Origin: Antechinus flavipes
Taxonomy: Eukaryota
DNA: 64,000 nt
Assembly: GCF_016432865.1 (NCBI RefSeq)
Contig: NC_067400.1
Location: 612,932,001 to 612,996,000 of the forward strand
Reading direction: 5' to 3'
Shown: positions 4,603 to 38,192 of the stretch, piece after piece
How the letters are laid out: each line of letters opens with the position of its first letter
How positions within the stretch are numbered: position 1 is the stretch's first letter
Made by a program: the position numbers and the translations under genes
The notes under the pieces: generated by a model
The model's input: only the letters and a program-made list of their open reading frames with translations
The model's database searches: none
Told to the model about the DNA's origin: nothing

Positions 4603-4752
4603 TTTCCGTTTCCCTCTCCCGGTACCCGCCCTTTCAAGGTAAGAACCTTGCAGACACACCTGGCCCCGTCCAAGCCTTTCGCAGCGAGATTTTACGAATC
4701 TCTTTCCATTTTTCATACATCAGGGGAATCTCCGGCTTGGCCGCTTAAAAGT
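4603..4752 (+). promoter_or_regulatory. IFN-lambda copy 1 proximal promoter: IRF site, NF-kB site, TATA-like box
   Basis: TTTCCGTTTC (4603-4612; reverse GAAACGGAAA, IRF-E), GGGAATCTCC (4724-4733; NF-kB consensus GGGRNNYYCC) and TTAAAA (4745-4750), all upstream of ATG 4805. The NF-kB and TATA-like motifs are also present in copies 2 and 3. Confidence 0.7.
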
Positions 4753-4804
4753 GCGGGGATGAAGCGGTCTCCTGAGACACTTGCAGCCTCATCTCTCCAA
4801 GGCC

Positions 4805-6139: not shown

Positions 6140-7665
6140 AGTTCCAGACCCAGCTTGAGGTCTGAGACTGAACTTTTGCACTCCAAATATTATTTATGGA
6201 ACAACACCCTTCTAATTTATTCATTCCCTCCACCCCTAACACTCACATACTTTATATGCCAGAGGATAGTTTTGTACTTTTGTATTTTTTCTATATTTTG
6301 TTAAATAAATAAGAAAACACACAAAAAATATTGAAAGCTCGTCTGTCGTTTTGTAGTTGTTTTCTGTGTGACTGTTTGTGGCTTTAAGCAAGTGTGGTTG
6401 TGGGTTTTTGTGTGTGGCTCTGAGCAGGTGAGTTTGTGGATTTGTAGGTTTGTGTGTGCAATTGTAGATCTGTATGTGGCTGTGAACAGGTAGGGTTATG
6501 AATGTGTGAATGCAATTGTGGGTTTGTGTATATAGTCAGAGGGCTGTGTATGGCTGTGAGCTTGTGGGATTGTGGGTTTGTATGTGTGGGTATAAGTGGG
6601 ACTGTAGGATGTGTGCGTTGACCTGGATCTCCGTGTGGCTGCAGTCCGGGTCTCCTTTGACCTCGCTTGTGGGCTCCACTTTGCTGGGAAGGTAGTACCT
6701 GGGCTGGAAAATTAGATTGCATTTAATAGGGACTCTAGTCGACCAATCCTGCCTGACTCTGAGTGAGCCCCTTGGACATAGGTGATAGGGACCAGGAATC
6801 CGTGTACCCTCTTAGCGGAGCCAGCTGGATGCTGGGCTTGGGAGACCATCAGACATAAAGAGATTTCTTGATTCAGTGTCCTCCCTTGAGAAAGAAGACA
6901 GTCCATGGAATTTGTGCATCTTGCCTCACTTGAAGAACAAAGACCCTATGGCATTTACACACAAATTTGCTTCTCCCTCTTCCTCAATCAGAGCAACTAA
7001 AGATGGAACATAAAATAAAGGGGGATGGGGCAGAAAACAGAGTAATGATCGAAATGATGATTAAATAACAAATTATTGCAGAGATTTCTGACCTTACCCA
7101 AAATTTGGGCTACCTATCCTGTCTAGGGGGAGCTGTTTGCCCATTCAAGTAGGAAAACCTTTCCAAGAGATTCTAGTCCCAAGAAATGAAGTCTTCTGTG
7201 TTTTAGCCTGCCAAGACTGAGGAGAGGCAGAACCCTTTTGTCAAGACGGCCCTAGGTAGGGGTAGTTTGGATAAGAGTAAAGTCTCTTTGTCTAAGACTG
7301 AGTGATCCAATCAAATTCCCCCATTCCCTCATTAAGAGAAGCCCACCTCTCATTATAATATTCATTCTTCTCATGAATTTTGAAGCTATCGGTTAGTGCC
7401 ATCCTTAGGAACAACTCTGATTCCCAAGTGTATATAAGCATTGACTGGCTTCCATGAGGAGTCTTTGGCACCCAGAAATGCCACAGATCCAAATGTCAAA
7501 GACCACTTTTAAATAATTAGGCTGCTATATGTATGTATGTGTGAAAAAAGAATCCAAAATAGGGGTCACAGAGAGTCAGGCAGGAATGAAACAATTCAAC
7601 AAGAGTCAATGGACATTTCTTTTGTTTCCAGTTTTTTCTACTAGAAAAAAATATATGTTAAAATT

Positions 7666-7805: not shown

Positions 7806-10800
7806 GTGTAATATTATATATAGATATATAGATATATAGATTCTTATTTCATATCAATGAGCTGTCTGGAGTATATGTCTAGCAATAGAATCTGGGTCAA
7901 AGAGCATGGACTAAAAGCTAAAAATCTTCTTCATTTGCATAAGACATAATTGCTTTTTTAAATGATTGTACTAATTCACAACTCCACCAACAATGCATTT
8001 ATGTACTATCCAGTACTTGTCCAAAAACTGACTTTTTCCAGTTTTTGTCATCTTTGACAATTCTCTGGGGAGGAAGTAAAACCTCAGAGTTGTTTTGATT
8101 TGCCTTCCACTTATCAGTGATTTGAGGTATTTTCTTATGTGATTGTATTCGTTTGTAATTTTTCTTCTGAGAACTGCTCACTATTCTAACAACTTTTGAC
8201 CATGTTTCTGTTGGGAACTGTCTATTAAAGTTACGTTCACTGGAGGGACCTTTGTTGAAGCATAATCCATAGGCAGGTCTGTGAATCTGATGTAGTAGTC
8301 ACTTCCTTCTGCACCCCGCCCCCCCACCCCACCCCCTACCTTTATCCCCAACCAGAGATTCATCCTGATACCTGCAATACCAAATTAGGAAGACTCAACT
8401 AAAGAAGTGTAGGTCTCAGAGAAAGGAGATTACTGTGGCATTTTTACTTTCTGGGAAGGGTATCTACGCAACAGGGTAGTAGCACAAGTCTTGAGGAGAT
8501 TGGGAGGCCCTGAAAACAACATCAAATTCAGTTCTTTTCCATTGAGAGGTGATGGATTTTTCTCTTTCTGTTTTGGTTCATTCACTTTTATATCTTTAGC
8601 ATCTTAGGTGTGTTTTCTACATGATCAAATACAAGTTGCCTCATCCCTAAAGTTCATATTATACATTAAATACCTGTATGAGTTGGGGGCTCTCTTACCT
8701 ACATTTAGATTAACTGAGTCATGCGCTATGGTTTATTTTGGAGTTTTTCCTGCATTAATTCCAGGTGTGTGTGTGGGGAAGATGAAAGAAAAGAAACTGA
8801 CTTCTTTGGATTCCTTCAGATTAGGAATATTTCCTGTGAGTTTATAATTTTCATGGGGCAGTGAGGAAGAGGTTCCCAAGTTGCCAATACACATGAAGAT
8901 TAAATTATTTAAGATGAGGGAAAAATATGCTGAACAATCAAAGCAGTGATGCCCATTTGAAAGAGTTATTGACATCCCCAAATAGAAAATGGATGGGCGA
9001 ACAGATATTGACCCAGATAATAAAAGTTTCTAGAGAAGTTTAGCCTGTGTAAATCAAAGGACTCTATAAACCACTTGAGTCAGCAAATGTCTGATCTATT
9101 TGCCAAGTGGAGAGATGTGGTAGCTAAGGGCAGTACCAATTTTACAATATAAAACGGTAAGTTGGTAAGGAAGAGTTTGAGCAGTATCAACTCAGGAAAC
9201 AGCGAGAAGCAGAGAAATTTGGAGAAAGCTTGGCAGGATCTTGGCAACTAAAAACATTCATCATGAGGACATTTAAAGATGAAAGTGGAAATAACAAAAG
9301 ATTAAAGTCCAGAAAGAGAAGTAAATATTTTCATGTAACACCTGTGGACAGTGTGTGACACTTGGTGAGTACTCCATGTGTCAACTGGTCCACAGCAGCT
9401 GTGTAAGAAGTCTATGTCATCGATTTTCGTGTCATCATCTTGAAACCCACAGGAAATCAGTATTCCTTGATTCAGTGGGGGGGTGGGGAGGGGAGGGAGA
9501 GGCCAGCATATTTGAACTGTCCCCCAGATGGTGCTATAGATTCAAGTCACCAACCAAGTGGTCTCATCAGGGTCTCTGGTACCAAACCTCTCCCACCCCA
9601 CCAAGCAGTCTGGCTCTAAACAAATGGGCAAGTAAGCCAAAACAAAACTTGATCAAAAGAAAATCTATTCTGACCAGGTTCTGAATGGAGATTAGAGGGT
9701 TATGAAATATTAAAAACATTAAAATATGAAATCATTGGTCTCCACAGAACTCAAAGTCCCCCAACGCTTCATCTGGTCTTTATCCGTTGAAACAACCTCT
9801 TTTCTCTCAATTCATAAGGCTATAGCCACATAACAAAAAATGTAGGAAAAAGGTTCAGTGTGCTTGCTTGGAGTATTTTTAACCCCAAACTTATCACCAA
9901 ACTTCCTTTTCCTTGCCTTATTGCCATTTTTTTTTGAGTTGTCAGAGGGACAATTTCAAAACACCTGTACTCTGACTCTGCAGGTCATGAAAAAAGAACA
10001 AGTGTATATTTGTGGGAAATTGTGGGGAGGAGAATTGTATGTCTGAAACCCCACCTCAGGTACTGAATTAAGATCAGTGGAAGATTTGGAAAGAGAAGGT
10101 GGTAGATGGGTGTCCCTAGCTCCTTCCCCACCAAAAGGATTTTCAAAAGCTGAACCTTCTAGCCACTAGTCTACCATTACCATGGGTCTTGACTGTTCCA
10201 ACTGGTGGATCCCAGCTCTCCCAGGACAGTCCTGATTGCAGCAAGTCCCTACAACCTGCCCCACTCCCCACATCTTCAAAGGGTGTCAGGAAATCTCTCT
10301 TGAGATCAAAGAGGGACACAAGGGAGAAAATTAATTTTAGGCAAAAGCAACAGTCTCCCTTCCCTTTTCCAATGTTAGGCTTTCCTTCTTGTCATGGAGC
10401 TCTAATTCAACAAGATATTATCCCACAGCCTTGTAATGATGTTTCCCCACACTCGTGGGCATGTTTTTGGTGAGCAATGCTCCTCCCTTTTTTCCATCCT
10501 CAAACAGTCAAACCCAAAGGCACTGTGTGGGGCACAGTTAAATCTTTTCACTATCAAGGATAGTTGATCTATCTGGCCTCTAATAGCATAGTCCCAGATG
10601 TGCTAAGAGAGCCAATGGAAATAGCAAAGAAGAAAACAGAGATGTGGGCTAGAGGCAACCCAGTTATGAAGATGTTGAAAGGATATTCCCAGAGTATGTG
10701 AACCCAAGGGCGCCATTTGTTACAGGAGCCTCCTGTTATTGGCTGCTGAGGATCTACCTCCCCATTTTTTGTTTTATGGGGACACAATTATTTTCCCCCA

Positions 10801-12695
10801 ACTGCATGGTCTCTTCGTTTGTCCAGGAAGGTCAAGGGCTGTTATCCGAGTCTGAATGTTGAGGAATGCAAAGAGCACTATCAAAGTCTTTTTGTCCTAT
10901 TCTGGATGGTTGCAGAGGGAGACACTATAGTAGGTATTGGGTCTTGTGAGATGTCACGGAGGCAAACTTTCTGACAGATTGAGAAGTAGTCAGAAGAGGC
11001 ATTTTTCATAAGTCTCTCCTCAGTCTCCTGGCTTGACACTTTGGTGCGTTGGCCCATTTTAATTACCCCAACTGAAAAAGTCTTACCAGCTCTCTTCTCC
11101 TTTTCCTTCCCCACAGGTTACAGCAGGAATTCTCCCAGGAGGATCCCATTCACGAACAGCTCTCAAGCACTGCTGCTGCTGCTGCTGCTTCTTTGTTTCT
11201 TATGATTCGGGTGCCTCACGCTGGGCGCCATTTGTTCCTGAAGCCTCCTGTTAGTGGCTGCTGGGGATCTACTTCTGACCATCAGAATAGATCCTTTCAT
11301 GTGAGTGGATGATATCAATACAAAGAGACTGAGAGGCAGTTGCAATCTCCGATTTCACTCCTTTTCCTCTTTTGCCTCCAATTGATTTCATTCCCAATCC
11401 ACAAACAACATCTGTGTCAATAAAAGCTGATTTGCAATTGCTTCAGTTATGTTAGGATTCACCGTTGTGGGGGCTTTCTGGAGAACTGACCTGCCCCTTC
11501 CCACTCAGGCACAATCCTTAACAGTTCCCCGTTTTTTGTTTTGTTTCCATTGCTTCAAGCAACAGGTTATTTTAGCTTTCTAGAGAAATTCCATGGTCTC
11601 TTCAAAGATGAAGAATGATAACTGGTCGGGCTGTGATGTGTAATTGGACATACAGTGTATGAAACTGGTTTTGCAGTATACCTATTTTGTACATCCATTG
11701 CTAATAGACGAAGAGCTGGGTCGATAATTGTAAAGGAAAAAGAAAGCAGAAACAATCGCTTTTGGGAAATTACACTATTATTTTCATAACTTTAACCTTC
11801 TCCCAGAAAAAAAAGGCGCCCAAGAACAGTAACATTTATATGTTTATAAGAAGTGCAAAACAATTTACATACATTGCTTTGATTCTCCCCAAAACTTTGT
11901 GAATAAAGTGTTACAAATATTATTGCCTCCATTTTATACACGAGAACTAAAGCAGAGAGAAATTAAAGTTTGCTCTAGTTCACACAGATTTCCAGAGGAG
12001 GAGATATTTGGCTAACGAGTCACTGGGTAGAGGGGCAGCTCGATGGCAGTGGATAGAGCACCGGCCCTAGAGACAGGCTGACCTGAGTTCAGATTCAGCC
12101 TCAGACACTTAACATTTCCTACCTGTGTGGGCTATTGACTTAACTCCAATCGTCTCTGTACAAAGAGAAAAGTTCAGTAAGAGTCTTGGATAGAGGAAAG
12201 ATTTGGAGGAAATTGATAGGGTAAAAAAGGGGAGAAGGAGGAAGCTGAGAGTAAAAGATTGGAGGGGAGCCAGAGGAAAAAGGGAGAGATGCGCTGAAGG
12301 AGGAGTGCCGGCATAGGAAGCTCCAAGGGAGAAAGAAGGGAAGAAAAAGAAGGGTTATGGGCAGAAGTCTGAAAGGGGGATGAGCCAGGAAGAGGCCGCG
12401 AGGAGGGAAGATGCGCCCCAACCGGGGTGAGCCCAAGAGCTGCTTCTTTGTGGAATGATTTCTTTCCAGGCTCCCTTAGGCTGGACCTTGCTCTTTCCGT
12501 TTCCCTCTCCCGGTACCCGCCCTTTCAAGGTAAGAACCTTGCAGACACACCTGGCCCCGTCCGAGCCTTTCGCAGCGAGATTTTACGAATCTCTTTCCAT
12601 TTTTCATACATCAGGGGAATCTCCGGCTTGGCCGCTTAAAAGTGCGGGGATGAAGCGGTCTCCTGAGACACTTGCAGCCTCATCTCTCCAAGGCC

Positions 12696-14030
12696 ATGAT
12701 GCTTCGGCAGGCTCTCCCCTTGCTGCTTTCTGCCCTGATGTCAGGGGCGATGTCGAAGTCCCTGGCCCCGACTCCCAACAGCTTTCCCCCCGAGAGGAGC
12801 TGCCAGATGAGCCAGTTCAAGTCTCTTTCGCCTCGGGAGCTGGAAGCCTTCAAGGTGGCCCAGAATGCCTATGTAAGTTCCTGGAGGGCTTTTTGTACTC
12901 CACTCCTGCCACCTCCCACTTCCCGGGAAGGGGGTGGGGGGCGGGGGTGGGGTCTAACCTCGATCTCTTTTACTGTGCTCCAATACTCATCTCTCGCACT
13001 TAGGTCTAACGTTGATCCTTCCTTCTTGAGCTCTGTCCCTTTCTGTGTTTCTAATCTCCGTCCTACATCGCAAGGACCTAGAAGGGTCACAAGCCTTTAA
13101 CGTCTTCCTCTTCATCCCCTCAAGGAGAAGACCATGCTTCAGACGGAGAGGAAATGTAGCTCCAGATTCTTCCACAGAAACTGGGACCTTCGGCAGCTGC
13201 CGGTAAGAAGGGGCGCTCCCCACCTGTCAGTCCCATATCACCTTTCTCCAAAATCTGTCGCATCTCCATTTCTCTCCGCCTTCTGTCGGTCCTCCCCCAG
13301 TCTCTTCCCCTGTCCCCTTCATCAGCCTCTCCCTCACAACGCCTCTCATCTCTCCCCTCACAGCTGTCAGTTCGGCCAGTGCTCTTAGAGGCTGAGCTGA
13401 AATTGACTCTGGAGGTCTTGAAAGCCGTAACCAAGCCGGAGTTGGACAGCGTTCTGGCTCAGCCCCTACAAACGCTCAGCCACATCCACCAAGAGATCCA
13501 AAGCTGTGTGAGTACCGGAGGGTGGGCGGGGCTTCCCTGGACCAATGGGCATGGAGCTGTTCCCTGTCTCTCAGGTGCCTGGTTCCTTTGCAGTGAGGCT
13601 GAGAGACTGCAATACCTGGATCTCTCCTCCCCCCACCCATCAAACGCCTGGGTTCCCTGCGCTTTTATCAAGTCCACTCTCTCCCTACACAGGTGACTTC
13701 CCAGCCCTCTAAAGAACAAAGGCTTCCAGGACGCCTGAAGAATTGGCTGAACAAATTCAGTGAGGCCAGAAAGGTAAGTTAGAAAAGCTTCAGATCTACA
13801 ACTAGCACCTGGGGATCCAAGGGAGGAGTCAGAGGGGACCCCAGAGTCTGGGCAGCAAGAGACTCTGTCTCCCTCTGAGGGACTCAGGATTCCCCGGAGG
13901 ACACTTACCCCTGTGTCTATTCTCTTCTCTTCAGGAGCCTCACAATTGCCTCGAAGCATCCATCATGCTCAATCTCTTCCGACTCTTGCTCCAAGACCTC
14001 CGATGTGTAGCCTATGGGGACCTATGTTGA
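12696..14030 (+). CDS. IFNL3: Interferon lambda (IFNL2/3-like), copy 2, intact, 191 aa
   Basis: Exons 12696-12872, 13125-13202, 13364-13507, 13693-13773, 13935-14030. There are six CDS nucleotide differences from copy 1: four silent, plus L30F and H142Q. Confidence 0.97.
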
Positions 14031-17000
14031 AGTTCCAGACCCAGCTTGAGGTCTGAGACTGAACTTTTGCACTCCAAATATTATTTATGGAACAACACCC
14101 TTCTAATTTATTCATTCCCTCCACCCCTAACACTCACATACTTTATATGCCAGAGGATAGTTTTGTACTTTTGTATTTTTTCTATATTTTGTTAAATAAA
14201 TAAGAAAACACACAAAAAATATTGAAAGCTCGTCTGTCATTTTGTAGTTGTTTTCTGTGTGACTGTTTGTGGCTTTAAGCAAGTGTGGTTGTGGGTTTTT
14301 GTGTGTGGCTCTGAGCAGGTGAGTTTGTGGATTTGTAGGTTTGTGTGCGCAATTGTAGATCTGTATGTGGCTGTGAACAGGTAGGGTTATGAATGTGTGA
14401 ATGCAATTGTGGGTTTGTGTATATAGTCAGAGGGCTGGGTATGGCTGTGAGCTGGTGGAATTGTGGGTTTGTATGTGTGGGTATAAGTGGGACTGTAGGA
14501 TGTGTGCGTTGACCTGGATCTCTGTGTGGCTGCAGTCCGGGTCTCCTTTGACCTCGCTTGTGGGCTCCACTTTGCTGGGAAGGTAGTATCTGGGCTGGAA
14601 AATTAGATTGCATTTAATAGGGACTCTAGTCGATCAATCCTGCCTGACTCTGAGTGAGCCCCTTGGACATAGGTGATAGGGACCAGGAATCGTGTACCCT
14701 CTTAGCGGAGCCAGCTGGATGCTGGGCTTGGGAGACCATTAGACATAAAGAGATTTCTTGATTCAGCGTCCTCCCTTGAGAAAGAAGACAGTCCATGGAA
14801 TTTGTGCATCTTGCCTCACTTGAAGAACAAAGACCCTATGGCATTTACACACAAATTTGCTTCTCCCTCTTCCTCAATCAGAGCAACTAAAGATGGAACA
14901 TAAAATAAAGGGGGATGGGGCAGAAAACAGAGTAATGATCGAAATGATGATTAAATAACAAATTATTGCAGAGATTTCTGACCTTACCCAAAATTTGGGC
15001 TACCTATCCTGTCTAGGGGGAGCTGTTTGCCCATTCAAGTAGGAAAACCTTTCCAAGAGATTCTAGTCCCAAGAAATGAAGTCTTCTGTGTTTTAGCCTG
15101 CCAAGACTGAGGAGAGGCAGAACCCTTTTGTCAAGACTGCCCTAGATAGGGTTAGTTTGGATAAGAGTAAAGTCTCTTTGTCTAAGACTGAGTGATCCAA
15201 TCAAATTCCCCCATTCCCTCATTAAGAGAAGCCCACCTCTCATTATAATATTCATTCTTCTCATGAATTTTTAAGCTATCGGTTAGTGCCATCCTTAGGA
15301 ACAACTCTGATTCCCAAGTGTATATAAGCATTGACTGGCTTCCATGAGGAGTCTTTGGCACCCAGAAATGCCACTGATCCAAATGTCAAAGACCACTTTT
15401 AAATAATTAGGCTGCTATATGTATGTATGTGTGAAAAAAGAATCCAAAATAGGGGTCACAGAGAGTCAGGCAGGAATGAAACAATTCAACAAGAGTCAAT
15501 GGACATTTCTTTTGTTTCCAGTTTTTTCTACTAGAAAAAAATATATGTTAAAATTAGCTAGATGGTACAGTGGTTAAAGTATGGGCCTTGAAGTCAGGAG
15601 GATCTGAGTTCAAATGTGATCAGACACTTAAGACTTCCTAGCTATGTGAACCTGGGCAAGTCACTTAACCCTTACTTCCTCATGCAAAAAAAAAGGTGTA
15701 ATATTATATATAGATATATAGATTCTTATTTCATATCAATGAGCTCTCTGGGGTATATGTCTAGCAATAGAATCTGGGTCAAAGAGCATGGACTAAAAGC
15801 TAAAAATCTTCTTCATTTGCATAAGACATAATTGCTTTTTTAAATGATTGTACTAATTCACAACTCCACCAACAATGCATTTATGTACTATCCAGTACTT
15901 GTCCAAAAACTGACTTTTTCCAGTTTTTGTCATCTTTGACAATTCTCTGGGGAGGAAGTAAAACCTCAGAGTTGTTTTGATTTGCCTTCCACTTATCAGT
16001 GATTTGAGGTATTTTCTTATGTGATTGTATTCGTTTGTAATTTTTCTTCTGAGAACTGCTCACTATTCTAACAACTTTTGACCATGTTTCTGTTGGGAAC
16101 TGTCTATTAAAGTTACGTTCACTGGAGGGACCTTTGTTGAAGCATAATCCATAGGCAGGTCTGTGAATCTGATGTAGTAGTCACTTCCTTCTGCACCCCG
16201 CCCCCCCACCCCACCCCCTACCTTTATCCCCAGCCAGAGATCCATCCTGATACCTGCAAGTACCAAATTAGGAAGACTCAACTAAAGAAGTGTAGGTCTC
16301 AGAGAAAGGAGATTACTGTGGCATTTTTACTTTCTGGGAAGGGTATGTACGCAACAGGGTAGTAGCACAAGTCTTGAGGAGATTGGGAGGCCCTGAAAAC
16401 AACATCAAATTCAGTTCTTTTCCATTGAGAGGTGATGGATTTTTCTCTTTCTGTTTTGGTTCATTCACTTTTATATCTTTAGCATCTTAGGTGTGTTTTC
16501 TACATGATCAAATACAAGTTGCCTCATCCCTAAAGTTCATATTATACATTAAATACCTGTATGAGTTGGGGGCTCTCTTACCTACATTTAGATTAACTGA
16601 GTCATGCGCTATGGTTTATTTTGGAGTTTTTCCTGCATTAATTCCAGGTGTGTGTGTGGGGAAGATGAAAGAAAAGAAACTGACTTCTTTGGATTCCTTC
16701 AGATTAGGAATATTTCCTGTGAGTTTATAATTTTCATGGGGCAGTGAGGAAGAGGTTCCCAAGTTGCCAATACACATGAAGATTAAATTATTTAAGATAA
16801 GGGAAAAAATATGCTGAACAATCAAAGCAGTGTTGCCCATTTGAAAGCGTTATTGACATCCCCAAATAGAAAATGGATGGGCGAACAGATATTGACCCAG
16901 ATAATAAAAGTTTCTAGAGAAGTTTAGCCTGTGTAAATCAAAGGACTCTATAAACCACTTGAGTCAGCAAATGTCTGATCTATTTGCCAAGTGGAGAGAT

Positions 17001-20000: not shown

Positions 20001-20377
20001 TTTCCTACCTGTGTGGGCTATTCACTTAACCCCAATCGTCTCTGTACAAAGAGAAAAGTTAATTAAGAGATTTGGATACAGGAAAAATTTGGAGGAAATT
20101 GATAGGGCAAAAAAGGGGAGAAGGAGGAAGCTGAGAGTAAAAGATTGGAAGGGAACCAGAGGAAAAAGGGAGAGATGCACTGGAGCAGGAGTGCCGGCAG
20201 AGAAAGATCTAAGGGACAAAGAAGGGAAGAAAAAGAAGGGTTATGGGCAGAAGTCTGAAAGGGGGAGAGGGCCCTCGAGGAGGGAAGATACACCCCACCC
20301 GGGGCATGAACTGCTGCTTTTGTATAACCACTGGCTACAAGACCACTTAACAGCCAGTCCTTGGGCTGAATCTTGCT

Positions 20378-20395
20378 CTTTCAGTTTCCCTTTCC
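20378..20395 (+). promoter_or_regulatory. Perfect ISRE in IFN-lambda copy 3 promoter
   Basis: tttcAGTTTCCCTTTCC (core 20383-20395) fits AGTTTCNNTTTCY. Copies 1 and 2 read tttcCGTTTCCCTCTCC at the homologous site. Confidence 0.7.
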
Positions 20396-20889
20396 TAGTA
20401 CCCACCCTTTTTACACCTGGCCCCGCCCCTTTCCCAGCTAGATTTTTATAATCCCTTTCCATTTTTCAGACATCAGGGGAATCTCCGGCTTGGTCGCTTA
20501 AAAGTGCGGGGATGAAGCGGTCTCCTGAGACACTTGCAGCCTCATCTCTCCAAGGCCATGATGCCTCCGCAGGCTCTCCCCTTGCTGCTTTCTGCCCTGA
20601 TGTCAGGGGCGATGTCGAAGTCCCTGGCCCCGAATCCCAACAGCCCTCCCCCCGACAGGAGCTGCCAGATGAGCCAGTTCAAGTCTCTTTCGCCTCGGGA
20701 GCTGGAAGCCTTCAAGGTGGCCAAGGATGCCTATGTAAGTTCCTGGAGGGCTTTTTGTTCTCCACTCCTGCCACCTCCCACTTCCCGGGAAAGGGGTGGG
20801 GGGCGGGGGTGGGGTCTAACCTCGATCTCTTTTAATGTGCTCCCAATACTCATCTCTCGCACTTAGGTCTAACGTTGATCCTTCCTTCT

Positions 20890-21427
20890 TGTGGGGAATA
20901 GATAAGGTGAAGAACTTACAGGAATGTATGAATTCTTTTTCTGTATTTTATTATTTCTGTGTCTCCCCTATGACCTGTATATGTGCAGGCTCATATCTAC
21001 TTGAGCCTTGGCCAGCTAGAAACATATTTACTTAACCTGAACTGATGACATTTATTGGTATTTGACATTTATCAATATTTAGTCTATTAGCTGGACCACT
21101 GTCTGCTTGATTAAGCCTGAAGGCCTGACTTTGTTTCCCAGAAATCAGGAGATTTCAGGGAAATAGAAACCTTCCATTCCAATCTCCCCAACTAGCAACA
21201 ACCAATTAGATGCCTCCCCCTCCCCTTCTCAATGCTCTCTTACTTGTGATGTAATTTCTTGTATAAAAGCTATGTATTTTTACTACTTCTTTAGCCCTCC
21301 TACCGCGAGCTTATCTTGCGATGGGACGGCTCATCCTCCGGAGGTTTTTCAATAAACAACTTTTCTGCCTTCTACTGAGGGATCTCTGAGTAGTCATTTT
21401 GGGTAAGGGTCTTCTACATCCCTCACA
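20890..21427 (+). mobile_element. 5' LTR (U3 with GAS/ISRE, CCAAT, TATA; poly(A) signal)
   Basis: GAS 21135-21143 and 21154-21162; ISRE-like 21160-21171; CCAAT 21202-21206; TATAAAA 21262-21268; AATAAA 21351-21356. Confidence 0.95.
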
Positions 21428-21429
21428 GA

Positions 21430-21447
21430 TGGGGGCTCGTCCGGGAT
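21430..21447 (+). promoter_or_regulatory. Primer-binding site, tRNA-Pro
   Basis: TGGGGGCTCGTCCGGGAT is the same 18-mer as the MLV-type tRNA-Pro PBS and lies 2 nt after the LTR-terminal CA. Confidence 0.95.
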
Positions 21448-24400
21448 GGGGTCTTTGGGGGAGATGGCTATGTGCACCCCGAACAGGGACAGGCGCCCAC
21501 GGAGTAGTTTTCTCCATGGTCTCTGGCTCTGGGTGAGCAGCCTCCCTCCCCTCTTAGACAACAACCCGAAGCAGGAATACTCAGTGGAATGCAGAATTGA
21601 AGATTGAAAGAAGTAGAGTCCTGATGGCCGGCATTTGCAGCCTGAAAAGAAACATATGTTCTCGAGGTAAAGCTCTTGGGAAGTCTGGGGGTTTATTGGC
21701 TGGGTCGAGGGAGACCCTGAGGGATTAGCCCTCTTAAATTTATTTTTGGTGTGGACTGCTGTTAACCCCAACGATAAAGGACTTTTCCTAAGGAAGCTCT
21801 CGGGTGGCTGTGGGGGCGTGAGGGTAACATAGGGCCTCCGCCTGGGCGTGAGGATAACATAGGGCCTCCGCCAACACCTGGATCAGGTCCAGGGTGGTAT
21901 AGAAGCAGTCCGAAAATTTGTATCAGGACGTTGGCTAGGAAATTCAAGACTGGAATGAACTTCCCAGATATACAAGGGAAGAAAACTGGGAGGATGTATA
22001 TCCCAGGATTATTTGGGTATATCAGACTTAAATCTGTATGTAAAAGGTGAAAATAGAGTTTTGTGAATGTCTGTGTGTATGTCTGCTTTGCATTGCCTTT
22101 GTTCTGTGTTAAAAGTTAGAAAGCTCATAAGAGATAAGAATTCAGCTCTGTGTTACAGGCTTAGAAAAATATCAGGCTGAATTGTGGGAACTGGAATTCA
22201 TTCAGAGTAGTAATTCTTTCAGAGTGGCTCAGAATGTATTGGTCTTAGAATTTGGGAACTAGTTTTGGGCTTCTCAAGAAAAGAAAATCATTTTTCTCTC
22301 TCTCCCTCTGTCTCTGGCAGTGGCTTTGCAGGAAGGGGGAGAGAAGGGGGAAAAATAAAAACATAGATTGAAAGTTTGTAAAGTTTTGAGAAAAATAGAA
22401 GAACAGTGGCTATCGCTCCTGTAAACAAGGAGCCTGTTATCAGGACTCAGCCAGAGAAAAAAATTCTCAAGGTAAAGCAAGGATTGGTGCTTAACTCTTT
22501 CCTGGTTACTAAAGAAAAGACATGGGAATAAAGTATCTAGGTAAATTTTAGGAAATTTCACAAACTGAAGTACTGGTTAATTTTAAAATAACTTTAAATT
22601 AGTGTGTGTGTTAAGATTGGAAAATTTAAGATCAGAAATAAGAAACTGCAGATATTGGAAGGGAGTAATAAATATAGAGTAAGAGAGGTAAATAGTTGAA
22701 CACAGGGGCGTAATGACCTGTTGGACCTGTGGGAAAACTAGGCATACTTCTAAAGAAAAAATTTGCAGGAAAAGAAAGAAAAATCATCATTAGTAAATTT
22801 GCCTTCATGGAATTAGAGAACAGAAAGTTTAAGAAGATTAAACTGGGTAATTGTTTGCAATATTTGATTAAGAGTTTTGGGAATTTACTATATTTTAAAG
22901 AGGTACTATAATTTTGAAATTGAAATAAAATTAAAATTGGGGGAAATAATTTACTGTTGCCTTACACATGTTAGATTTATTCTGAATATAAAATCTTAAG
23001 AATTTTTCGAATATTGTGGCCTTTACAACTGAAGAGAAAAACTTTTCTTTTTTTTATTATTTGGTTGGACTTCAAATTGAAATATAGGTTATTAAACAAA
23101 ATGCCAGTAGCTTACCTTAGGGGGAGCTTGTGTTTGTATCTCCCTACTTAAATGGTATGTTGCTTTTTAAAAGTATTGAGTAATTTGTAAACTATATTAT
23201 AAGTTTTATGAAATTTGATTCAAAATTAATTGTGAATCTTGAAGTTTAAAGTTTAAAAAAAGATGATTTAAAGACAAGGGAAAAGAGATTGATTTACAAA
23301 AGCAATTAATAGTTTAAATAGAGCATCTAGTCGGAAGGATTTTTGGTTTAGGAGTGTTTAAAGTATGTAATAAATTTTGAGCAAGTAAGCATTGGGAAGA
23401 GAGAGAGACAGAGAGATGGGATAGGAGAATGAAGGTAATTTAAGAAGGATTGATTAGTAGAAACAAATGATTTCAAGAAGTCGTCAGTGGGAAAAAGAAG
23501 GAACTGGTTGGAAAGGGTAGTCACAGAGAGATGGATGTGAGAAGGGATGTGTTTTTGCGGGAGGAGAGAAAGCAAGCAGCAGGGGAAAGCGGCAGCCGCT
23601 TGGTTCCTTTGGCTGAAGAAAACAAATGGTTATTTAAAGAGACAAATTGCTCTTACAAGATGTTAACTGATTGAATATTTGTTTCTTTAGATACATAATG
23701 GTTATGAATATTAAAGAATATGATCAGAAATGTGGTATATAGTTTGAAAGGGTTATTTCAAAAAGTTTAATTGATGTTTTCAAGAACTTTTCAGATTCTT
23801 TTTATGTGAAAATAGGAAGTTTTAATTAACTGTATTGATGCCAATTATCTGAAATGGGACTTTAAGGATAATAGCTTTTGCCTTCTTCCTTTTGAAAATG
23901 TTTTTGTTGTGAACCATATGTAGTTTGGGATTTTTCTGTATATTGGGTATTTTAAAAGCAAAATGATTGGTATATTAAATGTATTCAAGATGCAACATCT
24001 ACTTGGGTATATAAGAATTGTGTGAATTTTCTGGGATAAATTTCTTACTGTTATTGATATAAGGTCATGGTAAATAACTGAGATTTATTTGAAACTTTGA
24101 AGACAAAATTCTTTGGGCTTGTAATTAATGCTATTTGGAAGTTTTAAAGCTCCACTCTTCAGTGTGCTGAAGATTGAGTTTTAACTGCTTATATTATGTT
24201 ATAGTTATGTTCTTGCATTTTTTCCTCCTGTGACTGATTTCTATGATCAGAACAATAGTTAATAAGAACTGTTAATGTAATTCAAATATGTCATACCTTG
24301 CTGTTTCCAATCTGGTTATATGTAATCATTATATCCTAAATACTTAGGCAAATAAGTATTTAGCCTGGTCATTTGTCTGTTACTGGATATTTGTGTTTTA

Positions 24401-26413
24401 TTTTTAAAATTTTTTTTTTTAATGATAAGAGGACAATTTACAATTGTCTGTGAAACCTAACTGCTATTTATTGGAACTATAGCTGTCTGCCTGTCCTGTG
24501 AAGCAAGCTTATTCCTTCACACAGGAACTGCTGGCCAATCTATACTGGCCTCCCCACATATTGTTGCAGGTCCAGACTATTCTAACTTTGTTAGATTTAG
24601 TTTTTTTTTTGTTTTTCTAGATTTTGGTCAAATTACAGATTATTGAATCTCTTCTGAGACATGGATCGGCCCATCTGAAGCTTATATTGACACCACACCC
24701 ACACCCCTGCATGGATTGAGCACTTTCGCCCATTTCTCAGCCTGAAGCAGCTAAGATCGAGACCATCGCCAGTGCTCCTGATGTAATTTGGACTGATATG
24801 GGGGAAGTGGGAAAGTGGTTGATGAATTATTGTTAAAATTACAACTCTATTACTAGAGTTAGAAAAAAAATGCAAATATTACTGTGTGTTTAAGATTTGG
24901 GATGGAAATTATTCAAAATGGTAACTATTGCTGTTAAGGAAGTTATAATATGTTTATAATATCTATGTTCACTTCAGAATATGTAATTGTTTAAGGTATT
25001 TGATTTGATTTGATTTGATTTGATTGATTTTAGGAAACTCCTCCTGTACTAGACTGTTATGTATGTAGGAACTTTAATTCACTCTTGGGATTTATATGTG
25101 GATGGTTATTTGACTATTTATTATTATTATTTTTTGGATGATTCCTTTCCATGAGGAAAAAAAAAGGGAGAGGAAGAGATAGGGAACTAGAGAAACTGGT
25201 GGATTTTTCTCAAAATACCTAAAAGAGTGGGAACCCTTAGTTTTCTTTCACTTTTGCCTTACGTACTTCTGCCCCACCCCCTATACCACCAGTTCAGATT
25301 GAATTGGAAGTCCTTAAACAATCCTTTTTGTTTTTACTATGTTTTAGCTTTGAAATCCCTTATTCTGTGGAATTGCCCTGGCAGACTCAGTTTTGGGAAC
25401 TATTCTGTTTTAAAGAAATCTCTAAGATAAAGACACTTGTCTTGGGACTGGCAATCTCCAGCCCTGTAACCCCAGTTTCTTAACTGGTACCTCAGCATTT
25501 TTAATAACATTGCCCTTTTGAGATCAAGCCTCTAAAGTTTGGGGTTTGCCTGCCTTCATGTTCTAACTGTGCATGCTCTGATAGCTCTGCTCAGAAATCT
25601 GTATTCTAGTAGCAGCCCTGTCTGTCCCCCTGAGTGGGGACAGGTGGAGCTACACTAAGCCTCACCCTTCTCCCCTGGAGTGGGTTGCCCCTCTGAATGG
25701 GCAGCATGACTGTCTCGAGCCCTGCTACTCCCTCTATAAGCAGAAGCTGAGTTAAGTGCACAAATGACTGCAGACCCCCTAACACAGTGAACTGTCCATC
25801 TCAAACTGGATTCTCTGACTGAGATGAGGGCCTTTGTACTGCTGATAACTCTGGGGTTGTCAGGAAGAGACTTGTCCTTGCCATAAGTCCTTGCATTTTC
25901 TAGTTTCATTTTGATTTATTTGCCTCACATTGGATTGGTAAAAATTATGGTGCTGAGACCTCCCAGGTATCTTAGGGAGGTAATTCAATAATTCAAATAT
26001 TCAGAAGAAGAGTGTGTAATGTTGTGCCTCAGTTTCCCTAGGTTGTCATCTTTATTTATCTTTGTATTTTTATGTTTGCCAAATGCCAATCTGTTCTGTG
26101 ATAACTGTTTCTAAGATAGTTGGTGGAAGCAATTTTTATGGTATGAACTTATTGCAGTCAATGGTATTATCCTGTTGCTGCTATGTCTATCCTGTATAAT
26201 TACATTAGTAACCAGAATAGTTCAGTGGTCCCTATCAAAATATTGCATACAGAAAATGCTATTAAAATGATGATTCTTCAGAGAAAAGACTGGAATGTAT
26301 TAAAGAGGGATGATCTTGATTGTGAACTTGATAAACAATGTATAGATATATTAACTGATTTTGAAAAGTGTGTAAGTTCTTCATAGAAATGTGATAAAAA
26401 TCATTTACATATT

Positions 26414-26425
26414 AGAAGGGGGGAG
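26414..26425 (+). promoter_or_regulatory. Polypurine tract
   Basis: AGAAGGGGGGAG immediately 5' of the 3' LTR. Confidence 0.85.
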
Positions 26426-26426
26426 C

Positions 26427-26964
26427 TGTGGGGAATAGATAAGGTGAAGAACTTACAGGAATGTATGAATTCTTTTTCTGTATTTTATTATTTCTGTGTC
26501 TCCCCTATGACCTGTATATGTGCAGGCTCATATCTACTTGAGCCTTGGCCAGCTAGAAACATATTTACTTAACCTGAACTGATGACATTTATTGGTATTT
26601 GACATTTATCAATATTTAGTCTATTAGCTGGACCACTGTCTGCTTGATTAAGCCTGAAGGCCTGACTTTGTTTCCCAGAAATCAGGAGATTTCAGGGAAA
26701 TAGAAACCTTCCATTCCAATCTCCCCAACTAGCAACAACCAATTAGATGCCTCCCCCTCCCCTTCTCAATGCTCTCTTACTTGTGATGTAATTTCTTGTA
26801 TAAAAGCTATGTATTTTTACTACTTCTTTAGCCCTCCTACCGCGAGCTTATCTTGCGATGGGACGGCTCATCCTCCGGAGGTTTTTCAATAAACAACTTT
26901 TCTGCCTTCTACTGAGGGATCTCTGAGTAGTCATTTTGGGTAAGGGTCTTCTACATCCCTCACA
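26427..26964 (+). mobile_element. 3' LTR
   Basis: No mismatch to the 5' LTR on line-by-line visual comparison. GAS at 26672-26680 and 26691-26699. Confidence 0.95.
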
Positions 26965-28429
26965 TTCTTGAGCTCTGTCCCTTTCTGTGTTTCTAACCTC
27001 TGTCCTACATCGCAAGGACCTAGAAGGGTCACAAGCCTTTAGCGTCTTCCTCTTCATCCCCTCAAGGAGAAGACCATGCTTCAGACGGAGAGGAAATGTA
27101 GCTCCAGATTCTTCCACAGAAACTGGGACCTTCGGCAGCTGCCGGTAAGAAGGGGCGCTCCCCACCTGTCAGTCCCATATCACCTTTCTCCAAAATCTGT
27201 CGCATCTCCATTTCTCTCCCCCTTCTGTCGGTCCTCCCCCGTCTCTTCCCCTGTCCCCTTCATCAGCCTCTCCCTCACAACGCCTCTCATCTCTCCCCTC
27301 ACAGCTGTCAGTTCGGCCCGTGCTCTTAGAGGCTGAGCTGAAATTGACTCTGGAGGTCTTGAAAGCCGTAACCAAGCCGGAGTTGGACAGCGTTCTGGCT
27401 CAGCCCCTACAAACGCTCAGCCACATCCACCAAGAGATCCAAAGCTGTGTGAGTACCGGAGGGTGGGCGGGGCTTCCCTGGACCAATGGGCATGGAGCTA
27501 TTCCCTGTCTCTCAGGTGCTTGTGTCCCTTGCAGTGAGGCTGAGAGACTGCAATACCTGCATCCCCCCTCCCCCCACCCATCAAATGCCTTGGTCCTCTT
27601 CGCTTTTATCAAGTCCACTCTCTCCCTACACAGGTGACTTCCAGCCCTCTAAAGAACACAGGCTTCCAGGACGCCTGAAGAATTGGCTGAACAAATTCAG
27701 TGAGGCCAGAAAGGTAAGTTAGAAAAGTTTCAGATCTACAACTAGCACCTGGGGGTCCAAGGGAGGAGTCAGAGGGGACCCCAGAGTCTGGGCAGCAAGA
27801 GACTCTGTCTCCCTCTGAGGTACTCAGGATTCCCCGGAGGAACTTATCCCTGTGTCTCTTCTCTTCAGGAGCCTCACAATTGCCTCGAAGCATCCATCAT
27901 GCTCAATCTCTTCCGACTCTTGATCCAAGACCTCCGATGTGTAGCCTATGGGGACCTATGTTGAAGATCCAGACTGAGCCTGAAGTCTGAACCTGGACTT
28001 TAGCACTCCAAACTTTATTTATTGACCAACATAATTTATTCTAACTTATTTATTCCCTCCACCCCCAACATAATGTATTCTAACTTATTTATTCTCTCCA
28101 CCAATTTATTCTAGTTTATTTATTCCCTCCACCCCCAACACTCACATACTTTATATGCCAGAGGATAGTTTTGTGCTTTTGTTATATTTTATTAAATAAA
28201 TAAGGAAACACAAAAAAATTGAAAGTCTGTCGTTTTGTAGCCATTTTCTGTGTAACTATTTGTGGCGATAAGGAATTGTGATTGTGGGTTTCTGTATGTA
28301 GTTGTGAGCAGGTGAGATTGTGCATTTGTGGGTATGTGTATGTAACTGTAGATCTGTGTATAGCTGTGAACAGGGTTATGGATTTGTGAGTGCATTTGTG
28401 GGTTTGTGTATATAGTCACAGGTCTGTGT

Positions 28430-30400
28430 ATGGCTGTGAGCAGGTGAGATTGTGGGTCTGTTTGTGGGTGTGTGTACTTGCAGGTCTGTGTATGGCTGTG
28501 AGCAGGTGAGATTGTGGGTCTGTCGGTGTGTGTGTGTACTTGCAGGTCTGTGTATGGCTGTGAGCAGGTGAGATTGTGGGTCAGTCGGTGTGTGTGTGTA
28601 CTTGCAGGTCTGTGTATGGCTGTGAGCAGGTGAGATTGTGGGTCAGTCGGTGTGTGTGTGTACTTGCAGGTCTGTGTATGGCTGTGAGCAGGTGAGATTG
28701 TGGGTCTGTCTGTGGGTGTGTGTACTTGCAGGTCTGTGTATGGCTGTGAGCAGGTGAGATTGTGGGTCAGTCGGTGTGTGTGTGTACTTGCAGGTCTGTG
28801 TATGGTTGTGAGCAGGTGAGATTGTGGGTCAGTCAGTGTGTGTGTGTATTTGCAGGTCTGTGTATGGTTGTGAGCAGGTGAGATTGTGGGTCAGTCGGTG
28901 TGTGTGTGTGTACTTGCAGGTCTGTGTATGGTTGTGAGCAGGTGAGATTGTGGGTCAGTCGGTGTGTGTGTGTACTTGCAGGTCTGTGTATGGCTGTGAG
29001 CAGGTGGGGTTGTGGGTCTGTCTGTGGGTGTGTGTGTGTACTTGCAGGTCTGTGTATGGCTGTGAGCAGGTGGGGTTGTGGGTCTGTGGGTGTGTGTGTG
29101 TACTTGCAGGTCTGTGTATGGCTGCGAGCAGGTGAGATTGTGGGTCTGTCTGTGGGTGTGTGTGTGTACTGGCAGGTCTGTGTATGGCTGTGAGCAGGTG
29201 AGATTGTGGGTCAGTCGGTGTGTGTGTGTACTTGCAGGTCTGTGTATGGCTGTGAGCAGGTGAGATTGTGGGTCAGTCGGTGTGTGTGTGTGTGTATTTG
29301 CAGGTCTGTGTATGGCTGTGAGCAGGTGAGATTGTGGGTCTGTCTGTGGGTGTGTGTGTGTTACTTGCAGGTCTGTGTATGGCTGTGAGCAGGTGAGATT
29401 GTGGGTCAGTCGGTGTGTGTGTGTACTTGCAGGTCTGTGTATGGTTGTGAGCAGGTGAGATTGTGGGTCTGTCTGTGGTGTGTGTGTGTACTTGCAGGTC
29501 TGTGTATGGCTGTGAGCAGGTGAGACTGTGGGTCAGTCGGTGTGTGTGCGTACTTGCAGGTCTGTGTATGGCTGTGAGCAGGTGAGATTGTGGGTCAGTC
29601 GGTGTGTGTGCGTACTTGCAGGTCTGTGTATGGTTGTGAGCAGGTGAGATTGTGGGTCAGTCGGTGTGTGTGTGTACTTGCAGGTCTGTGTATGGCTGTG
29701 AGCAGGTGAGATTGTGGGTCAGTCGGTGTGTGTGTGTACTTGCAGGTCTGTGTATGGTTGTGAGCAGGTGAGATTGTGGGTCAGTCGGTGTGTGTGTGTG
29801 TACTTGCAGGTCTGTGTATGGTTGTGAGCAGTGAGATTGTGGGTCAGTCGGTGTGTGTGTGTACTTGCAGGTCTGTGTATGGCTGTGAGCAGGTGAGATT
29901 GTGGGTCAGTCGGTGTGTGTGTGTACTTGCAGGTCTGTGTATGGCTGTGAGCAGGTGAGATTGTGGGTCAGTCGGTGTGTGTGTGTACTTGCAGGTCTGT
30001 GTATGGCTGTGAGCAGGTGAGATTGTGGGTCAGTCGGTGTGTGTGTGTACTTGCAGGTCTGTGTATGGCTGTGAGCAGGTGAGATTGTGGGTCAGTCGGT
30101 GTGTGTGTGTACTTGCAGGTCTGTGTATGGCTGTGAGCAGGTGAGATTGTGGGTCTGTCTGTGGGTGTGTGTACTTGCAGGTCTGTGTATGGTTGTGAGC
30201 AGGTGAGATTGTGGGTCAGTCGGTGTGTGTGTGTACTTGCAGGTCTGTGTATGGCTGTGAGCAGGTGAGATTGTGGGTCAGTCGGTGTGTGTGTGTACTT
30301 GCAGGTCTGTGTATGGCTGTGAGCAGGTGAGATTGTGGGTCTGTCTGTGGGTGTGTGTACTTGCAGGTCTGTGTATGGTTGTGAGCAGGTGGGGTTGTGG
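28430..30400 (+). repeat. 62-bp TG-rich minisatellite (VNTR), ~32 copies
   Basis: Unit gagcaggtgagattgtgggtcagtcggtgtgtgtgtgtacttgcaggtctgtgtatggctgt, with a variable internal (TG)n length. Confidence 0.95.
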
Positions 30401-30846
30401 GTTTGTATGTGTGGGTATAAGTTGGACTGTGGGAATGTTGGTGTCTGTGTGCAGTGACCTGGATCTCAGTGTGGGTGCAGCCTGGGTCTCCTTTGACCTT
30501 ACTTGTGGGCTCCACTTTTCTGGGAAGGTAGCACCTGGCCTGGAAGATTAGATTTCAGGGAATAGGGTCTCCAGTCAATCAATATTGGCTGACCCTGAGT
30601 TCCTTGGGCACAGGTGATGGGTGCCGGGGAAACGGTGTGCCCTCTTAGAGCAGCCACTTGGATGCTGGGTTTGGGAGAGCAGGAGGGGTCAAGTTAAAAC
30701 TCCCAGGTGCTGGAATCCCACTGCCTACCCTTGCCCCTTATCTCTTCCTGGCCAGGTTTTCCCCTTCCCACAATCTCTCCCAAGGCTCTTATAAGGAGGT
30801 TGGGGAGCAAGGAGGACAGGTGCCTGTGTGATCTCTGCCTTTAACT

Positions 30847-36000: not shown

Positions 36001-38192
36001 GTGAAAAATGCAAGAGAGATATGTAATACAGGGCAGAGACTGAGAGGGAGAGAGACAGAGACAGAGACAGAGACAGAGACAGACAGACAGATAGAAAGAG
36101 TGAAAGAGGGAGGGACAGAGGGAGAGACAAGGGCAGAGTATCGGCAACAGAGATGGATCCAGAGGATACATGTGAAAAATGCCAAAGAGATATGTANNNN
36201 NNNNNNNNNNNNNNNNNNNNNNNNNNNNNNNNNNNNNNNNNNNNNNNNNNNNNNNNNNNNNNNNNNNNNNNNNNNNNNNNNNNNNNNNNNNNNNNNNNNN
36301 NNNNNNNNNNNNNNNNNNNNNNNNNNNNNNNNNNNNNNNNNNNNNNNNNNNNNNNNNNNNNNNNNNNNNNNNNNNNNNNNNNNNNNNNNNNNNNNNNNNN
36401 NNNNNNNNNNNNNNNNNNNNNNNNNNNNNNNNNNNNNNNNNNNNNNNNNNNNNNNNNNNNNNNNNNNNNNNNNNNNNNNNNNNNNNNNNNNNNNNNNNNN
36501 NNNNNNNNNNNNNNNNNNNNNNNNNNNNNNNNNNNNNNNNNNNNNNNNNNNNNNNNNNNNNNNNNNNNNNNNNNNNNNNNNNNNNNNNNNNNNNNNNNNN
36601 NNNNNNNNNNNNNNNNNNNNNNNNNNNNNNNNNNNNNNNNNNNNNNNNNNNNNNNNNNNNNNNNNNNNNNNNNNNNNNNNNNNNNNNNNNNNNNNNNNNN
36701 NNNNNNNNNNNNNNNNNNNNNNNNNNNNNNNNNNNNNNNNNNNNNNNNNNNNNNNNNNAGAGAATGGAGAGAAAGAGAGAGAGAGACAGAGAGAGAGACA
36801 GATAGACAGGGACNNNNNNNNNNNNNNNNNNNNNNNNNNNNNNNNNNNNNNNNNNNNNNNNNNNNNNNNNNNNNNNNNNNNNNNNNNNNNNNNNNNNNNN
36901 NNNNNNNNNNNNNNNNNNNNNNNNNNNNNNNNNNNNNNNNNNNNNNNNNNNNNNNNNNNNNNNNNNNNNNNNNNNNNNNNNNNNNNNNNNNNNNNNNNNN
37001 NNTGGGGACAGAGCGCTGGAGAATACATGTGAAAAGTGCCAGAGATAAGTAATACAGGGCAGAGACAGTTGGAGGTAGAGGGAGAGACAGAGACAGAGAA
37101 GAGAGAGGCACAGAGGAAGGGTGGGGGCAGAAGGAGGAATGGGGCAAGACAGCCAGACAAAGGCGGTGAGGGATGACTATTTAGGGATGGAAATTGCCGG
37201 GAAGGAACATTGGGAAAGATCAAACTTGGAGGCAGACGCAAGCACAGGGACAGGGACAGGAACTGGAAAAGATGGAAACGAAGGGAGAGGGAGAGACAGA
37301 GAGAGAAACAGGGGGAGGGGGGGGACACACGTGGGGGGGCGAAAGGGGGTAGGAGAAAGATACAGAGACAGACTGATAGAGACTGACAGAGACAGATGGA
37401 GAGACAAGGGGGGAGAAAGGGGGGGAGGGAGACAGAAGGGGGAGGGAGAGAGAGAAGGGGAGGAACAGAGCGGGGAGAGGGAGAGATAGAGAGAGACAGA
37501 GAGACAGAGACAGAGAGGAGAGAGGGAGGGAGAGGGAAAAAGGGAGAGAAGGGAGGGAGAGAGGGAAAGGGGGAAAGAGACAGAGACTCAGGTGCACACA
37601 CACACAGAAACTGAGATAGAGACAGAGAAACTCAGAGAGAGAAACTGAGACAGAGTCAGAGAGCGCCAGGCGGGGACGGGGACACGGGAATAAAGCCACA
37701 AGCCGCTGAGCCAGGTGCAAGGGTCCGAACGGCTCCCAGAAGCACCGCCAGGGACAGAGGCGCGAGCCTGGGACTGGCGGAGCCCGGCCGGGCGCCCACA
37801 AGCCCTTGCTGCCCGCCGGCCCCGGCCGGTCCCCGGCTCCCGCCACTGTCCCGGTGCAGATCCTCCCGCCCCGCCCCCACTCCCGCACCCTCGGGGTTCG
37901 GGGATCGCAGCAGGTTGCGGTAGAGCGGCCTCCGCACGTAGAGCAGCTTCCAGCTGAGACCCGGGGGCAGATTCAGCTCCGCCCCGGGAGTCCCCCACTC
38001 ATCCAGCAGCAGCTGGCGGGCCCCTTGCTCCGACGGCCCCGGTGAAGGAGGCGCTCCGAGGATGGAGCCCGGGGACAGCGGCGGCGGGGGCGAGGGCGCC
38101 CGTGGGGGGAACGGGGGCGACGGGGGTCTGGGCGGCCCCTGCCCTCCTCCGGCCGCAGGTGCGTCGGGGCCCGTGTCTGCGGCTCCGTCCAT
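33011..38192 (-). CDS. NCCRP1: Non-specific cytotoxic cell receptor protein 1 (FBA-domain protein, FBXO50), 263 aa
   Basis: Exons (minus) 38192-37889, 35362-35303, 35111-35060, 34810-34715, 34582-34444, 33151-33011, GT-AG with consistent phases. Motifs ARQLLLDEWG, RRPLYRNLLRSPNPEGINIYEP, WTVKQQCVDLLAEGLWEELLDDEQP, FEDSRLDVCVYELHVWLLAADRRTV and VSHVFKHYGPGVRFVHFLHK match NCCRP1. Confidence 0.96.
33305..33560 (+). repeat. 111-bp tandem repeat (~2.3 copies) in the last NCCRP1 intron
   Basis: gcattggga recurs at 33331, 33442 and 33553 with near-identical intervening sequence. Confidence 0.8.
34010..34270 (-). mobile_element. MIR/MAR1-like SINE fragments (antisense)
   Basis: cattttacagttgaggaaactgaggc...gacttgttcagggtcacacggctagt is the reverse of the CORE-SINE core. 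Confidence 0.65.
35900..37660. repeat. AG-rich low-complexity / ~170-bp repeat region with two N blocks (36197-36758, 36814-37002)
   Basis: The motif (g)agaatacatgtgaaaa..g...gagata.gtaatacagggcagagac occurs at ~35990, ~36160 and ~37020 around the Ns, among (AGAC)n/(AG)n runs, in NCCRP1 intron 1. Confidence 0.7.

Follow-up and report, generated by a model that had tools for sequence, protein, structure and literature searches.

What is the retroviral element that sits inside an interferon gene of Antechinus flavipes, how did it get there, and what did its arrival do to the gene? The window (the whole stretch of DNA that was analysed, 64,000 nucleotides, with all genes and element features given here on its forward strand) carries three IFN-lambda genes, arranged as tandem repeats of a 7.9-kb unit; syncollin comes next and, further downstream, a gene that we take to be PAK4 from its peptides. 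The gene that bears the insertion was identified as IFN-lambda by Pfam IL28A (E = 2.6e-8 for exon 1 and 6.4e-15 for exon 3). The closest of the 11 proteins returned for copies A and B was an Antechinus flavipes IFN-lambda (91% and 90% identical, respectively); identities to other IFN-lambda proteins were up to 90% for the devil, 86-87% for the dunnart and 71% for the koala. The syncollin protein shares 98% identity with that of Sminthopsis and 74-88% with those of other marsupials. Taken together, these identities indicate a dasyurid host. Copies A (4805-6139) and B (12696-14030) both have an intact 191-aa frame. Copy C (20558-27964; exons 20558-20734, 27067-27144, 27305-27448, 27634-27713 and 27869-27964) is the copy that bears the insertion. 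It has canonical splice sites, retains its poly(A) signal, and keeps ISRE-like (20379) and NF-kB-like (20477) motifs in its promoter, the same motif types as in A and B.

The element occupies 20890-26964 (6,075 bp) in sense orientation within intron 1 of copy C, with 155 nt between it and the donor of exon 1 and 98 nt between it and the acceptor of exon 2, so that an intron of 253 nt has become one of 6,332 nt. Its LTRs (20890-21427 and 26427-26964, TGTG...CACA) are identical at 538/538 positions by exact comparison (blastn, 100%, 0 gaps), with no exact extension of the identity past either end. They are flanked by TTCT at 20886-20889 and at 26965-26968. As the corresponding place in the intron has a single TTCT in paralog A (5132-5135) and in paralog B (13023-13026), the segment 20886-26968 consists of the element and both TSD copies. 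The letters are also compatible with a 6-bp TSD (TTCTTG), a less likely reading, as the inverted TGTG...CACA termini and the 2-nt offsets to the PBS and PPT favour 4 bp. The PBS (21430-21447) matches the proline PBS of MLV at 18/18 positions, taking the latter from a probe sequence in PMC4587795, and the PPT is a purine tract at 26414-26425. The 5' LTR has its TATAAA at 21262 and its AATAAA at 21351, with an acceptor-like AG between them at 21294; the AATAAA of the 3' LTR lies at 26888. These direct LTRs with TG...CA ends, the TSD with its empty sites, the PBS and the PPT are the hallmarks of a provirus. The original prediction, which had described a sense insertion in an interferon gene with mismatch-free LTRs, a 4-bp TSD absent from two paralogs, a perfect PBS-Pro, an intact PPT and an AATAAA at 21351, is thus borne out as to the structure of the element. 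A search of the 64-kb window for a second copy, a solo LTR or an internal repeat of the element found none.

The interior of the element, 4,999 bp long, had been predicted to lack long ORFs, and it does: its longest sense stop-to-stop frame is 90 aa, no longer than expected from 200 block shuffles (median 93 aa), its longest sense ATG frame is 67 aa, and stops occur in all frames. An autonomous provirus is rejected on this lack of coding capacity. The interior opens with a GC-richer leader (21448-21950, CpG o/e 0.48), a putative packaging region that contains a donor-like GTGAG at 21533 and a 30-bp tandem duplication at 21814-21872. It is followed by 2.7 kb of AT-rich, C-poor non-coding sequence (21951-24650, GC ~31-33%) without a Pfam retroviral match. 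One short frame in it (22713-22766) carries a CX2CX4H pattern that resembles a decayed nucleocapsid zinc knuckle; the frame has no Pfam match. Retroviral Pfam families were matched by 0/41 stop-to-stop frames of the interior, 0/6 whole frames with X at stops and 0/33 short windows, and the whole frames and short windows likewise gave no detectable RT sequence. Weak matches to DUF2300, YIF1, Vpu, Ly49, DUF3377 and CD52 fell under the Pfam cut-off and were set aside as compositional. Rfam at its gathering thresholds returned no match in the window.

Described as non-coding, the interior fits as far as coding capacity goes; it is not featureless, as it contains relics of env and integrase. They resemble the intact class I provirus MEGrv1 of Antechinus flavipes (PMC11334065). 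A decayed and internally deleted env relic, comprising the end of SU and TM (25355-25985), is collinear with MEGrv1 env. Four motifs from it (at 25464, 25754, 25849 and 25946) were compared with the 8-record supplement of PMC11334065, and 4/4 gave single matches, all in MEGrv1 env and with their order kept; as the motifs were picked after the likeness was seen, this is a confirmatory test and not a blind one. Window positions 25746-25768 are a 23-nt exact match to MEGrv1 env, and under a uniform model, comparing 5 kb with 72 kb would yield an exact 23-mer in common with a probability of ~1e-5. The motifs are spaced more closely than in MEGrv1 and stops abound in the frames, which shows the env relic to be internally deleted and long dead; its CpG o/e is 0.05. 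Apart from the four-motif test, the comparison with MEGrv1 was made by eye. In this way we recognise an integrase C-terminal coding relic (24662-24730), bracketed by acceptor-like sites at 24620 and 24740, and a relic PPT with the first bases of a MEGrv1-type LTR (25995-26040, against MEGrv1 8171-8215). The relic LTR start at ~26020 marks, by eye, an internal fossil 3' end of a MEGrv1-type virus. Searches that did not start from MEGrv1 gave less: neither the TM-like nor the integrase-like relic had a match among PDB sequences, the TM-like relic matched 0/222 candidates from a large protein collection at E 10, and the SU-like relic had one unnamed match in a representative library (E 3.3e-4), which we do not count as evidence.

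Beyond the fossil end lies a tail of different origin (26041-26413, ~400 nt), without CpG (o/e 0.00), followed by its own PPT and LTR. It had no match among the Pfam short windows or in the motif search of the PMC11334065 supplement. A hydrophobic 51-aa frame in the tail (26115-26267) may be a second env transmembrane relic, a lead only: its top cluster in the ESM Atlas scored 0.85, and 11% of its members have GP41, which falls short of the threshold set by the tool, and a 79-aa frame returned nothing there. Together, the relics suggest that the interior is an old mosaic, in which the decayed 3' part of a MEGrv1-like provirus, including its PPT and LTR start, would have recombined with a different tail and LTR.

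Is the element then a member of a described group? A 4-bp TSD and a tRNA-Pro PBS are typical of class I ERVs and do not define them. Devil ERV1 elements have a 4-nt TSD (PMC4408412), and the formal criterion for class I is RT phylogeny (PMC11334065). The proline PBS, the favoured 4-bp TSD and the gamma-type env and integrase relics are class I-like features and suggest that placement, with blind profile searches negative. Within class I, the MEGrv1 likeness consists of the collinear env SU/TM, integrase-end, and PPT and LTR-start relics. Membership of the MEGrv1 clade is rejected, as the LTR and PBS differ and likeness in gag and pol is limited to the integrase end, by eye; a gag or RT relic of MEGrv1 type was not seen in the element. 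The PBS of MEGrv1 is not a proline PBS, unlike the element's; judged by tRNA ends, it is glutamine-like. MEGrv1 is moreover intact and 8.65 kb long, with a 451-bp LTR that is unrelated to the element's 538-bp LTR, and MEGrv1-3 are rejected both as helper and as clade, since their LTRs differ and none has a proline PBS (PMC11334065). The LTRs listed for the eight published dasyurid clades measure 281-486 nt and none is 538 nt (MEBrv2 and 4 have no listed LTR); no matching LTR was found among those of MEBrv1 and MEGrv1-3 (compared whole) or of MEBrv3 and MEBrv5 (compared at their 3' ends). Gallus et al. 2015 defined a devil ERV1 LTR family with consensus types of 589-711 nt. Membership of it is rejected too, as its LTRs are unlike by eye and 0/5 motifs were found in four supplement files of that study (PMC4408412).

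The closest parallels are in organisation. recKoRV1, the koala KoRV-PhER recombinant, is likewise a defective marsupial element of ~6-7 kb with a short TSD (PMC5696478, PMC6112702), built from an LTR, a leader, the 3' part of a foreign ERV with its LTR sequence, a short tail and an LTR. It depends on the integrase of a helper, as the present element would. Unlike recKoRV1, the element has a MEGrv1-like internal donor of which only the first LTR bases are left, and a dasyurid host; as its tail is itself decayed, the recombination would also be old. PhER shares terminal repeats, a tRNA priming site, limited env similarity, a noncoding interior and a marsupial host (PMC5696478); compared by description only, it is 8 kb long with 478-bp repeats and resides in the koala, as against 6.1 kb and 538-bp LTRs here. 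Mouse ETn/MusD and bovine D-type ERVK[2-1-LTR] are noncoding elements with intact LTRs that are mobilised in trans (PMC1331978, PMC10924933), and when they insert in sense, the host transcript is cut short at their 5' LTR. They are class II (betaretrovirus-like), with a known LTR-sharing coding partner and demonstrated de novo insertions, whereas this element is class I-like and known from sequence alone.

How recently did the element move? With 0/538 differences between the LTRs, the 95% upper bound on their divergence is 0.56%, and the age bound is <0.6-2.8 My if the rate per site and year is assumed to lie between 4.5e-9 and 1e-9. Such identity points to a recent insertion, not necessarily a current one, so of the proposal that the element is very young or currently mobile, youth stands, and both extreme youth and current mobility go beyond what the bound can say. 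As decay in place would have made the LTRs diverge too, a decayed interior between identical LTRs indicates recent copying of an RNA that was already defective. An improbable alternative is that the element is older than it looks, its interior having decayed in place while its LTRs were equalised by gene conversion or by assembly collapse or polishing. Homogenisation between the paralogs is indeed patchy (B-C differences range from 0/483 to 51/455 per block) and the window does contain N gaps. Yet the assembly separates 7.9-kb paralogs that differ by 1-3%, as well as a 2.1-kb array of 62-bp units; the PBS, PPT, termini and TSD are all perfect, which LTR-LTR conversion would not maintain; and copy C differs from the empty introns at only 6-8/252 sites, far below the decay of the env relic.

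For recent copying, the element would have needed help. That it is non-autonomous had been predicted, and agrees with an interior that encodes nothing between intact cis signals; judged from these, the element is a non-autonomous ERV, class I-like (gamma-like). It has kept what it needs in cis (LTR promoter, poly(A), proline PBS, leader, PPT and integrase ends). Since the recently copied RNA encodes nothing, Gag, RT and integrase were presumably borrowed from a helper retrovirus, whose proteins would have packaged, reverse-transcribed and integrated it. This helper should use tRNA-Pro and recognise the LTR ends of the element, and both copying and insertion would fall within the age bound given by the LTRs. 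To speak of a family is to extrapolate from one copy.

What did the insertion do to copy C? Full-length ERVs in sense orientation in small introns near exons form the class in which disruption of transcription is most likely (PMC3735543). In ETn insertions, the main mode of action is premature polyadenylation, accompanied by cryptic splicing (PMC1331978), and a non-autonomous bovine ERV halts APOB transcription within its 5' LTR (PMC10924933). By analogy with these precedents, normal splicing of copy C would very probably be stopped, in line with the earlier expectation that the LTR poly(A) signal truncates the host transcript. Most likely, the transcript would end at the 5' LTR AATAAA (21351), directly or after splicing to 21294, and is predicted to consist of exon 1 and a short tail.

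Copy C has a second lesion. In exon 4, a 1-bp deletion (27641-27642) leaves CC in place of the CCC of copies A and B, a homopolymer difference that shifts the frame and brings the first stop at codon 148 of 192. This deletion and the mosaic interior with its env and integrase relics are the two features that the original prediction did not contain. Its claim that the insertion knocked out an antiviral gene is weakened by the independent frameshift and by the two intact 191-aa paralogs next door, and the gene effect of the insertion is probably minor.

A homopolymer difference may also be an error of sequence. As a control, another 3,105 nt of coding sequence, containing 202 homopolymer runs, were inspected and showed 0 frameshifts (the PAK4 exons being judged, without a reference, by open frames between anchor peptides), which bounds the chance of such an error in this gene at <=0.31. 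A further 36 homopolymer runs agree between the two LTRs, and the introns of copy C have other private 1-bp deletions. Amino-acid changes number 4 on the C branch and 4 on the A/B branch, with no clear excess decay in C.

The proximal promoter of copy C (20228-20557) is ~10% diverged, with several indels, from those of the paralogs (4475-4804 and 12366-12695), while the sequence upstream of it is 0-2% diverged from B. This pattern would fit gene conversion in patches, or else an old paralog that has a promoter of its own. So diverged a promoter means that copy C may not be fully redundant, which bears on the strongest rival reading, unlikely in our view and yet to be taken seriously: that the exon 4 deletion is an assembly error and that the ERV alone, through its 5' LTR poly(A), inactivated a working copy C, possibly creating a segregating null allele. 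The error bound leaves room for this, the splice sites and promoter motifs of copy C are intact, and the insertion belongs to the disruptive class (PMC3735543) with APOB as precedent (PMC10924933). It is countered by the 202 control runs without a frameshift, the agreement of the 36 LTR runs, the further private deletions in copy C introns and the presence of two intact paralogs.

Taking the deletion as real, we estimated when it arose from an assumed indel:substitution ratio of 0.05-0.15. A frameshifting indel in the 575 nt considered has a probability of 0.02-0.18 of arising after the insertion, and of 0.34-0.72 of arising since C split from A/B, given an intron divergence of 3.2-3.9%. The frameshift, if real, is thus probably older than the insertion. 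The reverse order, in which the ERV hit a working copy and the frameshift followed as decay, would suit a copy whose promoter and splice sites are otherwise intact, but the short time since the insertion makes it improbable at the indel rates assumed. When the element landed, the exon 4 frameshift had probably already put copy C out of function, and a damaging-looking insertion would have been tolerated because the copy was broken and two intact paralogs remained. To the combined reading, that a recombinant non-autonomous ERV was moved by a helper into an already broken copy C, we give slightly better than even chances.

The original prediction also allowed that the gene was rewired, for which we find no support. 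A 3' LTR promoter driving exons 2-5, or LTR enhancers serving the cluster, is highly improbable. The 3' LTR does place a TATA box ~270 nt ahead of exon 2, an in-frame ATG is present in that exon, and the LTR contains one GAAANNGAAA motif. Against this, the 3' LTR AATAAA (26888) precedes exon 2, an LTR-driven product would be without a signal peptide and would meet the exon 4 frameshift, and a single motif in 538 nt is no evidence of function.

Trans-moved non-autonomous ERVs, recombinant defective marsupial ERVs and LTR truncation of host genes are already known. Among the papers listed by literature searches (including PMC13641905), we found no report of this element or of an ERV in a marsupial IFN-lambda gene, although the element may be catalogued in Repbase or Dfam. 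Dasyurid ERV surveys sought gag, pol or env matches (PMC11334065), so an element without genes would escape them. The perfect cis signals of this one point to a helper virus that was active recently and is not among the described clades whose LTRs we compared, and the fossil PPT/LTR junction inside it bears witness to a recombination of the kind that gave rise to recKoRV in koalas. The empty sites in the paralogs make the insertion a clean, easily genotyped marker. As two intact copies remain, an interferon knockout matters little, unless the exon 4 frameshift is an error; the better lead is virological (a mosaic defective element that points to an undescribed recent helper) and not immunological. 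A further, rather improbable reading joins the two leads: an undescribed tRNA-Pro-primed retrovirus, outside the eight published dasyurid clades, would still be mobilising the recombinant with its fossil 3' end of a MEGrv1-like virus, the exon 4 deletion would be an assembly error, and the fresh insertion would be a segregating null of copy C, the copy whose promoter has diverged. If true, marsupials would offer a second case of germ-line invasion in progress, coupled with a natural interferon knockout.

Several minor features of the locus were also noted. The 3' UTR of copy C (28026-28140) has a 74-bp expansion of an AU-rich unit, with six ATTTA against two in A and B. Between copy C and syncollin, a 62-bp tandem array (28303-30402) comprises 33 copies with 92% matches; just one related unit goes with each of copies A and B (~6410-6590 and ~14300-14480). 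The start of the window (1-1800) falls inside the 7.9-kb unit, so another IFN-lambda copy is probably present beyond the upstream edge of the window. The N gaps (36197-36758, 562 nt, and 36814-37002, 189 nt) lie in a GA-rich simple-repeat region. Older interspersed repeats pair 48453-48951 with 61651-62166 (78%, direct) and 60489-60644 with 62269-62431 (84%, inverted). In the devil, where at least 7 IFN-lambda proteins are predicted, two models lack 9 residues where exons 3 and 4 join and in one model exon 4 is replaced, which hints that lesions may occur at the same exon 3/4 spot there. Among devil models P0085, P0088, P0089, P0091 and P0092, several are irregular near exon 4 or truncated, and this suggests frequent pseudogenes or assembly errors in dasyurid IFN-lambda clusters. 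With at least seven devil proteins, several of them with an irregular exon 4, copy turnover appears to be usual in the IFN-lambda family.
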